Shown here piece after piece: positions 15,691 to 16,670 of a DNA stretch of 21,425 bases (its first letter is position 1; the number at the start of each line of letters is the position of its first letter). The stretch lies in IMG/VR virus record IMGVR_UViG_2802429219_000008. One strand, given 5' to 3'. The notes under the pieces were generated by a model. The model had not been told where the DNA came from. It ran no database searches and saw only the letters and a list, made by a program, of their open reading frames with translations. Position numbers and translations under genes: made by a program. The DNA is from a virus (taxonomy: Duplodnaviria > Heunggongvirae > Uroviricota > Caudoviricetes).

Positions 15691-15906
15691 ATGAAATCAA
15701 TGGATAAGTTAACAACAGGTATCGCCTATGGCACATCGGCTGGTAATGCTGGTTTCTGGGCATTGCAGTTACTCGATAAAGTAACTCCGTCACAGTGGGC
15801 TGCAATCGGTGTGCTGGGTAGTCTGGTTTTTGGCCTGCTGACATATCTGACAAACCTTTATTTCAAGATTAAAGAAGACAGGCGTAAGGTTGCGAGAAGA
15901 GAGTAA
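15691..15906 (+). CDS. essQ: holin (phage 21 S-type, class II), EssQ/EssD-like
   Basis: ORF track 15691..15906(+), 71 aa. [71 protein letters not shown] has two TM segments and a basic C-terminus. GGGGTGAGGA Shine-Dalgarno. Confidence 0.8.
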
Positions 15907-15910
15907 TCCA

Positions 15911-16462
15911 ATGACACAAGTCTATGAACTGGTTGTGAAAGGAGTCCGCAATTTTGAGAATAAAGTGGCGGTAACTGTAGCCTTACGGGACAAAAAACAC
16001 TTTGACGGTGAAATTTTTGACCTGGACATCTCGCTGGACCGTGTTGAAGGTGCCGCGCTGGAGTTTTATGAGGCAGCAGCGAGAAGGAGCATTAGACAGT
16101 TCTTCCTGGATGTTGCTGCCGGGTTATGTGAAGTGGATGAGCAGTCGCCGGAAAAGCGCCCCATAATTTTAGAGGCGCAGAATGTGTGGATAACCTACAA
16201 AGGAAAGCTACCGGGAAGAATTACTGGTTCTCTGAAGACGCCACCGACGGCATTGCGGTCAGAAAAAGATGATATTGAATCGCCCATTGAAAAACTGGAG
16301 GGCAGCGTCGCTGATCTGAATAAAAAATTGTCGGTGCTGATTCCTTCTGAAGATGAAAAAAAACGCCGCGATGAGCAGTTTGCGGCGTTTTACGATTATT
16401 GCATTGAAGTTACTCGCAGGAATTTTGTGAAGATTTTTGAGGAGGGTAAATCTCTTCAGTAA
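15911..16462 (+). CDS. YdfR-like protein of unknown function between holin and endolysin (183 aa from ATG)
   Basis: ORF track 15890..16462 (TTG start). The ATG at 15911, 5 nt after the holin stop, gives MTQVYELVVKGVRNFENKVAVTVALRDKKHFDGEIFDLD..., which I think matches the YdfR family N-terminus. Confidence 0.5.
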   Translation: MTQVYELVVKGVRNFENKVAVTVALRDKKHFDGEIFDLDISLDRVEGAALEFYEAAARRSIRQFFLDVAAGLCEVDEQSPEKRPIILEAQNVWITYKGKLPGRITGSLKTPPTALRSEKDDIESPIEKLEGSVADLNKKLSVLIPSEDEKKRRDEQFAAFYDYCIEVTRRNFVKIFEEGKSLQ

Positions 16463-16670
16463 GCTTAATGGCGGACGCTGCAATTAATTCAGGAAGGTCC
16501 GCAAGGTCATCTGTCAGTGGATATGATGAAAAATCGGCGGCAGTTCTGTTAAGAAGCGCTTTAACTAATTCCTTTTCCTTCTCCGGCAACAAGTTGATTA
16601 GAGCTACGACTGCTTGCCTGAGTGCGATTAAATCAGCAAAAGTTTGTTTTGGTAGATTTGTGTAATCCAT
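16410..16670 (-). CDS. hypothetical helical acidic protein (86 aa), convergent with and overlapping the YdfR-like gene by ~50 nt
   Basis: ORF track 16410..16670(-). AGAGG Shine-Dalgarno 7 nt upstream of ATG. MDYTNLPKQTFADLIALRQAVVALINLLPEKEKELVKALLN... The + ORF 16468..16665 looks like its shadow. Confidence 0.4.
   Translation of the reverse strand: MDYTNLPKQTFADLIALRQAVVALINLLPEKEKELVKALLNRTAADFSSYPLTDDLADLPELIAASAIKLTEEIYPPQKSSQNSCE

Follow-up and report, generated by a model that had tools for sequence, protein, structure and literature searches.

Between the holin and endolysin genes of the virus record IMGVR_UViG_2802429219_000008 (Caudoviricetes), two open reading frames (ORFs) converge on opposite strands and run into each other at their 3' ends. 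Are both of them genes, and what does the overlap mean? We analyzed the whole stretch of 21,425 nucleotides (nt), hereafter the window, which is a Qin-like lambdoid prophage of Escherichia coli or a close relative. An earlier sequence-only reading had described a YdfR-like ORF of 183 amino acids (aa) on the plus strand and a helical, acidic ORF of 86 aa on the minus strand, and it had offered two explanations for their overlap of about 50 nt: mutual antisense interference, or one call that is too long. Both ORFs are present as described, and the overlap measures 53 nt (Table 1). We conclude that the two ORFs are very probably real genes forming a conserved module. The interpretation of the whole that we somewhat favor is that of a conserved, convergent two-gene accessory module, similar to a moron, inside the late lysis operon of lambdoid prophages.

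Both ORFs and their overlap recur in three diverged types

Homologues of the pair were assigned to three types, namely type A (the type of the window), type B (rare E. coli prophages), and type C (Salmonella prophages). At the protein level the types are only 40 to 50% identical, and both ORFs are kept in all three with an overlap of 53 to 59 nt. Type B was found in eight complete E. coli genomes, with the gene order holin, a YdfR of 174 or 243 aa, the minus-strand homologue, and endolysin; the overlap is 59 nt, and the YdfR protein combines a linker of the E. coli K-12 type with a tail ending in MKFLQELKLSQQE. In type C, the plus-strand partner is a stand-alone gene of 73 aa, located after an Rz-like DUF2514 gene and before DUF1441 and terminase genes, and it too is convergent with the minus-strand homologue and overlaps it by 59 nt. 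The 73-aa protein aligns with the last 36 to 38 residues of its counterparts in types A and B, and both alignments extend to one or two residues from each C terminus. This tail homology was detected by BLASTP (43% identity over 35 aa) and by hhalign, with E values of 4.5e-5 for type C against type A and 1.2e-4 for type C against type B.

The remote homologues determine how the overlap is to be read. We considered that it might be a fresh recombination scar, with a junction near 16445 and both ORFs running into foreign sequence, and we dropped this possibility because the remote homologues share the overlap and have tails of equal length. The proposal that one call is too long did not hold up either, as every module-bearing homologue reads through to a C-terminal KSLQ and its stop codon, and the minus-strand ORF, far from being poorly conserved, is kept at full length in remote relatives. 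Short YdfR forms of 103 to 116 aa do end earlier, but only for want of the whole module. Judged by these comparisons, the 53-nt overlap is an inherited feature of the pair, neither a recombination scar nor a miscall. The conserved unit consists of a helical tail protein encoded on the late strand and an acidic three-helix protein encoded opposite it, their genes overlapping at the 3' ends; the tail of the window protein is joined to a DUF1327 domain.

The plus-strand gene and the forms of YdfR

The plus-strand ORF can start at 15890 (TTG) or 15911 (ATG) and stops at 16462. From the ATG it encodes 183 aa beginning MTQVYEL, the usual N terminus of YdfR, and the product matched the phrog_2091 profile over its entire length (1-183/183, E 4e-110). 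The gene also lies where a ydfR is expected, between a PF04971 class II holin and a PF00959 lysozyme. The PF07041 (DUF1327) model scored 140.5 bits against a gathering cut-off of 25 and covers aa 1 to 112 only. The end of this domain is likewise a boundary in nucleotide comparisons: most E. coli matches to a query of 16200-16780 stop at 16246/7, and in a near-identical genome the Prokaryotic Genome Annotation Pipeline (PGAP) lists ydfR (locus coordinates 6312-6647) as a pseudogene "missing C-terminus" that ends at the equivalent of 16246. AlphaFold2 modeled the protein with low confidence (mean predicted local distance difference test score, pLDDT, 54) as three strands and a helix at residues 50 to 73, a low-confidence stretch at 68 to 131, and C-terminal helices at 123 to 143 and 147 to 182. 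No significant match to the tail was found in PADLOC, Pfam, or NCBIfam.

As a test of the extension beyond the domain, we used a codon-usage log-likelihood trained on the genes of the window, which gave +0.24 per codon. The plus-strand gene at 183 aa and the minus-strand gene at 86 aa were both intact in 61 of the 87 related type A loci scored. Other intact plus-strand variants (169, 176, and 211 aa) differ by in-frame indels only, a 21-nt deletion in the 176-aa form and a 28-codon insertion in the 211-aa form, and all end in KSLQ at the same stop codon. Together with the 183-aa form, these variants join diverse DUF1327 alleles to one common C-terminal segment ending RRDEQFAAFYDYCIEVTRRNFVK(I/A)FEE(G/S)KSLQ. 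From the shared stop codon and the positive codon-usage score, it follows that the plus-strand call is not too long.

Elsewhere in the family, forms of 114 to 116 aa end two residues past the motif GSLKTPP, a 217-aa form is without the DUF1327 domain, and a 296-aa form (phrog_1085) runs on through a coiled-coil region into a further domain. The gene for the 296-aa form (loci L093-L096, 2501-3391) occupies the entire gap between holin and endolysin and has no gene opposite it. Forms of 268 and 305 aa also occur, and their C-terminal domains, like that of the 296-aa form, have no Pfam match. This comparison shows the YdfR family to be built of exchangeable modules; those of the window protein are the DUF1327 domain, the linker, and the helical tail.

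The earlier reading had raised the question whether the YdfR of K-12 corresponds to only about the first 100 residues of the window protein. The N-terminal correspondence was confirmed, but it is shorter: only residues 1 to 74 of the 103-aa K-12 protein are common to the two, with 81% identity. Past residue 74 or so, the K-12 protein has a different linker, of type B, which ends at a deletion junction. The K-12 Qin region is colinear with a type B cassette minus 580 bp, and these 580 bp comprise the tail, the minus-strand gene, and most of the spacer. The K-12 ydfR overlaps the start of rrrQ, and in MG1655 Qin (ydfR at 4055-4366) its last four codons, HKYL, are the endolysin leader read in frame.

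According to a 2026 study (PMC13232886), K-12 YdfR co-purifies with RNA, and its residues 1 to 72 bind RNase E in the N-terminal, catalytic half. By homology, the DUF1327 part of the window protein probably binds the same half of RNase E, which is the only functional lead for the plus-strand protein.

Evidence that the minus-strand ORF is a gene

The minus-strand ORF, read from 16670 to 16410, is preceded by the ribosome-binding site that the sequence-only reading had pointed out, AGAGG at five bases from the ATG. A homologous AAACAGTAAGGAC stands ahead of the type B and type C start codons, and the Shine-Dalgarno and start region is homologous between types. The product matched the phrog_2572 profile at full length (1-86/86, E 1.2e-53). 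It is helical and acidic, as had been described: the predicted isoelectric point (pI) is 4.57, with values of 4.5 to 4.6 in all three types, and AlphaFold2 predicted helices at residues 8 to 27, 30 to 48, and 56 to 74 (mean pLDDT 72; 10-sequence alignment), followed by a non-helical C-terminal tail (residues 75 to 86) in which the pLDDT falls to about 46. Grand average of hydropathy values of -0.11 and -0.75 make both products of the module hydrophilic, and soluble helices are predicted for them.

The exact 86-aa protein is encoded on at least 1000 contigs and in deposited phage isolates with named hosts (2H10, PhiR63_1, and PhiR12_x). Escherichia and Shigella account for its close homologues, save for a fragment from Salmonella that is truncated, and those of full length have 85% identity or more; a scan of species-representative genomes returned a single locus, from E. 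coli. No significant match to the protein was found in Pfam, NCBIfam, PADLOC, or PDB. A profile search of 1.8 billion representative proteins revealed full-length relatives of 93 and 89 aa with 49% and 40% identity.

Could the minus-strand ORF nevertheless be no gene at all but an open antisense frame or a recombination scar, with only the plus strand functional? Annotation would fit such a view, as the minus-strand coding sequence is missing in some near-identical genomes, ydfR is called a pseudogene in others, and gene callers skip the ORF in the Salmonella loci. One lineage has lost the start codon. Within type A, the 23 distinct mutations (9 synonymous, 13 nonsynonymous, and 1 stop) give a ratio of nonsynonymous to synonymous differences (pN/pS) of 0.2 to 0.7, in which values of 0.6 to 0.7 would suit a non-gene, but the divergence is too low for the ratio to be informative on purifying selection. 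A gap-free alignment of the type B and type C genes, which are of equal length, gives a pS of 0.59 and a pN of 0.25, a ratio of 0.43 in frame, compared with about 1 in the out-of-phase frames. The mirror antisense frame (plus-strand frame 16468-16665) behaves alike in this test and is also open, and for that reason pN/pS does not fix the strand. Codon usage does separate the two frames: the minus-strand ORF scored +0.135 per codon, against 0.07 to 0.21 for known genes, and all frames other than the two called were negative, including the mirror frame. The mirror ORFs, moreover, agree neither in start nor in length (65, 63, and 115 aa) and lack a Shine-Dalgarno sequence, whereas the length, start codon, and Shine-Dalgarno sequence of the minus-strand ORF are conserved in types A, B, and C, and an amphipathic three-helix protein is predicted from it. 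We also considered whether the minus-strand module could have arisen by inversion of a copy of the 3' region of the gene for the 296-aa YdfR; this was ruled out, since neither blastn nor a six-frame comparison detected any similarity. With this evidence on the table, we regard the view that the ORF is not a gene as very improbable.

A predicted terminator of the minus-strand gene lies within plus-strand codons

The transcript of the minus-strand gene would meet a hairpin 18 nt past the stop codon, with a 10-bp stem (-14.6 kcal/mol) that is embedded in the plus-strand codons KKRRDEQFAAFY and is followed by a U-run (Table 1). A consensus terminator scan missed this hairpin because its loop limit was 8 nt and the loop has 12. 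The motif was found in every type A locus examined (about 85), and a hairpin also occurs at the equivalent position in types B and C, with one compensatory pair, G-C to A-U. The 296-aa YdfR form, which is without the minus-strand gene, is also without the hairpin, owing to a five-codon deletion and a mutation in one arm. On the plus strand, the same palindrome is followed by ACGAUUAUU and therefore has no free U-tract, and Q-modified polymerase would read through it anyway. We consider the assignment of the embedded hairpin as a terminator to be a well-founded prediction.

A second terminator-like hairpin occurs on the minus strand at 16152-16178, in the part that encodes DUF1327 (GCGCCUC, a 9-nt loop, and GGGGCGC, then UUUU). 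In strain CFSAN061769, a hairpin of this kind lies about 50 nt downstream of a different opposite-strand gene, of 90 aa.

A minus-strand transcript that ended at the predicted terminator could pair with the last 107 nt of the plus-strand ORF, and the layout thus allows the antisense interference that had been suggested. This could be taken further, with the minus-strand transcript serving for cis-antisense control: by pairing with the late mRNA, or by collision with late transcription, it would tune or block the lysis genes, and the peptide would be secondary. Complementarity would extend over the 3' end of the plus-strand gene and, on read-through, to the holin gene. Such a role would account for a convergent overlap kept at 53 to 59 nt in three diverged types, for a terminator so placed that it would define the 107-nt complementarity, and for module DNA that is unusually conserved relative to its flanks. 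However, the protein keeps its length, start, Shine-Dalgarno sequence, and amino acid pattern at 40 to 49% identity despite a pS of 0.59, and a purely RNA function is disfavored because the protein was conserved while the nucleotide sequence diverged. Furthermore, neither the consensus scan nor the weight-matrix scan described below detected a promoter, and the type C pair, located after Rz, is unable to act in the same way on a holin and endolysin mRNA. We therefore judge cis-antisense control to be unlikely, and antisense RNA is unlikely to be the sole function of the minus-strand gene because the strand carries a conserved protein.

The module is probably mobile, and its minus-strand gene appears dispensable

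Lambdoid lysis cassettes had been assumed to run from holin to endolysin without interruption, which is only partly correct. A ydfR between the two is the usual state of Qin-like or phage 21-like E. coli cassettes, where it is a regular resident of this slot; what varies is an insert at about 16250-16740, made up of no more than the plus-strand tail and the minus-strand gene. The segment at about 16350-16700 is 90 to 100% identical across loci in which the holin gene is 74 to 78% and rrrQ 83 to 88% identical to those of the window, and the module as such reaches 95 to 100%. Of 5426 complete E. coli genomes, 294 (about 5%) carried the block, and a prophage that is 97% identical overall is without it and has a short K-12-type ydfR instead. 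Its GC content is 41.5 to 43%, compared with 52 to 54% in rrrQ. Like a moron, then, it is present or absent as a discrete block among close relatives; a terminator of its own, also expected of a moron, is there as a prediction only.

In loci L089-L092, the 211-aa/86-aa pair is preceded by small DUF genes and a gene for a SASA/DUF1737 esterase. This arrangement is typical of late regions of the Shiga toxin (Stx) type, and the module therefore also circulates in Stx-type phages.

Inactivated alleles of the minus-strand gene were found repeatedly. The lineage with the 176-aa form (7 of 80 viral loci) has lost its start by a change of ATG to ACG, one nonsense allele was seen, and in some Salmonella prophages the first 13 or so codons are replaced. 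The plus-strand gene is intact in the lineages with an inactivated minus-strand gene, except where a 2-nt insertion breaks the tails of both. The module is not essential for the phage, as it is carried by isolates and its minus-strand gene is dispensable in these lineages.

The alleles bear on whether the two products are physical partners, with the acidic protein binding the plus-strand tail as an inhibitor, chaperone, or immunity factor, in the manner of a toxin and its antitoxin or of an effector and its inhibitor. Every tail type goes with a minus-strand type of its own, both where it is joined to DUF1327 and where it is free-standing, and both proteins are predicted to be short helical bundles or hairpins. 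The gene overlap, however, explains the co-occurrence equally well, and opposite strands and opposite expected timing disfavor co-expression. The loss of the minus-strand gene (by ATG to ACG or by 5' replacement) where the plus-strand gene is intact is hard to square with an antitoxin and thus disfavors an antitoxin-like dependence, and there were no PADLOC matches. A partnership of this kind is, in our view, improbable, about as much so as cis-antisense control.

Weighing the moron-like interpretation

As for the minus-strand gene itself, we tentatively propose that it is a lysogen-expressed moron that ends at the embedded hairpin, a proposal about which we are in two minds. A number of observations count against the moron-like interpretation, among them the behavior of the mirror frame and the uninformative type A polymorphism described above. 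The covariation in the hairpin is not significant, with a single compensatory pair among six sequences, and the stem may be conserved merely through its coding role (RR...AA). The hairpin in the DUF1327 part also occurs where a cassette has no minus-strand gene, and terminator-like hairpins are therefore not specific markers. A promoter for the minus-strand gene should lie in the spacer at 16671-16783; in a consensus scan for sigma-70 promoters, no site reached 9 of 12 matches, and in a position weight matrix scan the best candidate, TTTATC-17-TATGTT (16768-16740, minus strand), scored 7.4, on a par with the shuffle median of 7.3. Fold searches with the minus-strand protein returned nothing informative. 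The gene has decayed in several lineages. Lastly, the literature searched contained no expression data for the module, and expression of the minus-strand gene in the lysogen is purely our inference.

Comparison with known systems

K-12 Qin YdfR occupies the same slot, between essQ and rrrQ, and is related through its first 74 residues; it differs in having neither the tail nor a minus-strand gene, whereas the window protein has in addition a linker and a helical tail, and its gene overlaps a convergent one.

A close analogy for the minus-strand gene is bor of phage lambda, a moron that encodes a lipoprotein and is an independently transcribed accessory gene opposite the late operon, adjoining the lysis genes. 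Both are small opposite-strand genes in or near the lysis cassette, with a ribosome-binding site of their own, a predicted terminator, patchy presence, lower GC content, and dispensability, and the type C pair, after Rz, is at the site that bor occupies in lambda. In contrast to bor, the minus-strand gene encodes a protein with neither a signal peptide nor a lipobox, and the promoter scans yielded none for it. The two are unrelated in sequence. The 3' end and predicted terminator of the minus-strand gene lie within a late gene, whose tail always accompanies it.

The oop RNA of lambda is short and non-coding, is antisense to the 3' end of cII with a convergent overlap of some tens of nt, and curbs cII. 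The window has in common with oop and cII two convergent lambdoid units whose 3' ends overlap, but here the antisense unit encodes a conserved protein of 86 to 93 aa and is thus not non-coding. Nor does the pair resemble type I toxin-antitoxin systems (txpA/ratA, bsrG/SR4), which consist of a small hydrophobic membrane toxin and an RNA, as both products here are hydrophilic. Type II toxin-antitoxin and anti-phage defense systems differ in that no models matched and the minus-strand gene is lost while the plus-strand gene stays intact.

The slot between holin and endolysin holds other convergent pairs and seems to be a hotspot for opposite-strand accessory genes. In CFSAN061769 (locus 1212-1794), a 114-aa YdfR is paired with an acidic 90-aa minus-strand gene (phrog_2411, predicted pI 4.3) with a 35-nt overlap, and the last residues of the 90-aa protein, ISAESSENQ, are antisense to ITGSLKTPPKW of ydfR. 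In 7_33_46A (locus 1450-2416), a 217-aa plus-strand gene and a basic 106-aa minus-strand gene (phrog_1853) overlap by 8 nt. The 90-aa and 106-aa genes are like the 86-aa gene in their slot and in being convergent with a gene of the ydfR family or a related plus-strand gene; they are unlike it in belonging to different PHROG families, with no detectable similarity to the 86-aa protein.

Layout of the locus

The gene order of the window runs from the integrase and exonuclease through dicB, hokD, rem, ydfU, and the Q antiterminator gene ydfT to the terminase genes. The plus-strand ORF has essQ as its upstream neighbor in the late lysis operon. The N terminus of RrrQ is a hydrophobic segment, which presumably resembles a signal-anchor-release (SAR) domain as in phage 21-type endolysins.

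Table 1. Features of the lysis cassette and its surroundings, in window coordinates.
Feature	Position	Strand	Basis or remarks
cspB	14723-14938	+	
ynfU	15302-15523	-	
essQ, class II (phage 21-type) holin	15691-15906	+	Pfam PF04971, E 7e-34; named essQ in near-identical genomes
Plus-strand ORF, long-form YdfR family, 183 aa (phrog_2091)	15911-16462	+	
DUF1327 module, aa 1-112	15911-16246	+	PF07041, E 2e-41; common to 114-aa YdfR forms
Tail module, predicted helical hairpin ending RRNFVKIFEEGKSLQ, then stop	16277-16462	+	Homologous to Salmonella 73-aa protein and type B YdfR C terminus
Predicted intrinsic terminator of minus-strand gene	16391 to 16356	-	AAAACGCCGC, 12-nt loop, GCGGCGUUUU, U-run extended to eight U
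3'-end overlap, 53 nt	16410-16462	both	Plus strand encodes TRRNFVKIFEEGKSLQ, then stop; minus strand encodes last 17 codons of minus-strand protein
Minus-strand ORF, 86 aa (phrog_2572)	16410-16670	-	WP_001306174.1, "hypothetical protein"
Spacer, minus-strand gene to rrrQ	16671-16783		Alignment; 16671-16741 module-specific, 16742-16783 endolysin leader common to all cassette variants
Shine-Dalgarno AGAGG of minus-strand gene	16676-16680	-	5 nt from ATG; read from sequence
rrrQ, phage lysozyme	16784-17317	+	PF00959, E 3e-24; downstream neighbor
rzpQ, with embedded Rz1-like frame	17314-17811	+	
cspI	18172-18387	+	

Upstream of the minus-strand gene, a palindrome (CCAGTG-N5-CACTGG, 16701-16717) lies 31 to 47 nt from the ATG. 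Its stem is conserved in 2H10 and PhiR12_2, and its loop varies (TCCAT, CCCAT, CCCAC); the element may form a stem in RNA or serve as a binding site for a protein. A terminator-like site on the minus strand (16803-16818), in the 5' end of rrrQ, consists of GCAGCCGACAGGCTGT followed by ATCTGATTTT and adjoins the upstream region of the minus-strand gene. It could insulate this gene from antisense read-through, or it could be a chance occurrence (three sites in the region against 1.6 expected).

Within rzpQ, a 98-aa ORF in the +1 frame (17465-17761) has a lipobox-like LTSC motif and is the expected embedded Rz1/rzoQ spanin gene. On either side of the lysis cassette, the cspA thermoregulator family RF01766 has two full-length matches, 14562-15001 (159 bits) and 18017-18448 (110 bits), which span the leaders and genes of cspB and cspI. 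An Rfam scan of the region gave only GcvB, below threshold (E 0.94).

The annotation of the locus is inconsistent in public genomes. In some complete genomes PGAP lists ydfR as an incomplete pseudogene, and elsewhere identical or near-identical 183-aa products are listed as an intact "YdfR family protein"; as for the minus-strand gene, some near-identical genomes have it annotated and others do not.

Discussion

The layout places transcription of the minus-strand gene in opposition to late transcription. We hypothesize that the plus-strand gene shares its transcription, from the Q-dependent late promoter, with holin and endolysin, and that the minus-strand gene would most likely be expressed when late transcription is off, in the lysogen or in early infection. 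At the onset of Q antitermination, head-on late transcription and the RNA duplex would silence the minus-strand gene, whose product may be a non-essential accessory protein. The module as a whole would be gained and lost en bloc by recombination between phages, as morons are.

A more elaborate possibility is a switch in the lysis cassette, in which the lysogen-expressed minus-strand gene and the late plus-strand tail antagonize each other both as RNA (3' duplex and collision) and as protein, and in this way gate the DUF1327 RNase E binder, the stability of late and lysis mRNA, and the timing of lysis. We think such a switch rather far-fetched.

Both protein families were already catalogued as hypothetical in PHROGs and RefSeq, and opposite-strand accessory genes in lambdoid late regions are known. 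Literature searches on the phages and on opposite-strand genes in lysis cassettes returned nothing relevant, and in the literature searched we did not find a description of the convergent pairing with a specific tail module, of the embedded terminator, or of the modular history of YdfR, including the K-12 deletion.

These results settle an inconsistency in annotation, as both ORFs are conserved even though PGAP drops the minus-strand gene or calls ydfR a pseudogene. They also put the textbook YdfR in perspective, since the K-12 version is without the 580 bp, tail and minus-strand gene, that a type B cassette has. The two-gene unit is carried by about 5% of complete E. coli genomes and occurs in phage isolates and in prophages with Stx-phage-like late regions. 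With a conserved antisense gene and a predicted terminator inside a late gene, it offers a test system for how lysogen-expressed genes may be insulated from the lysis operon.

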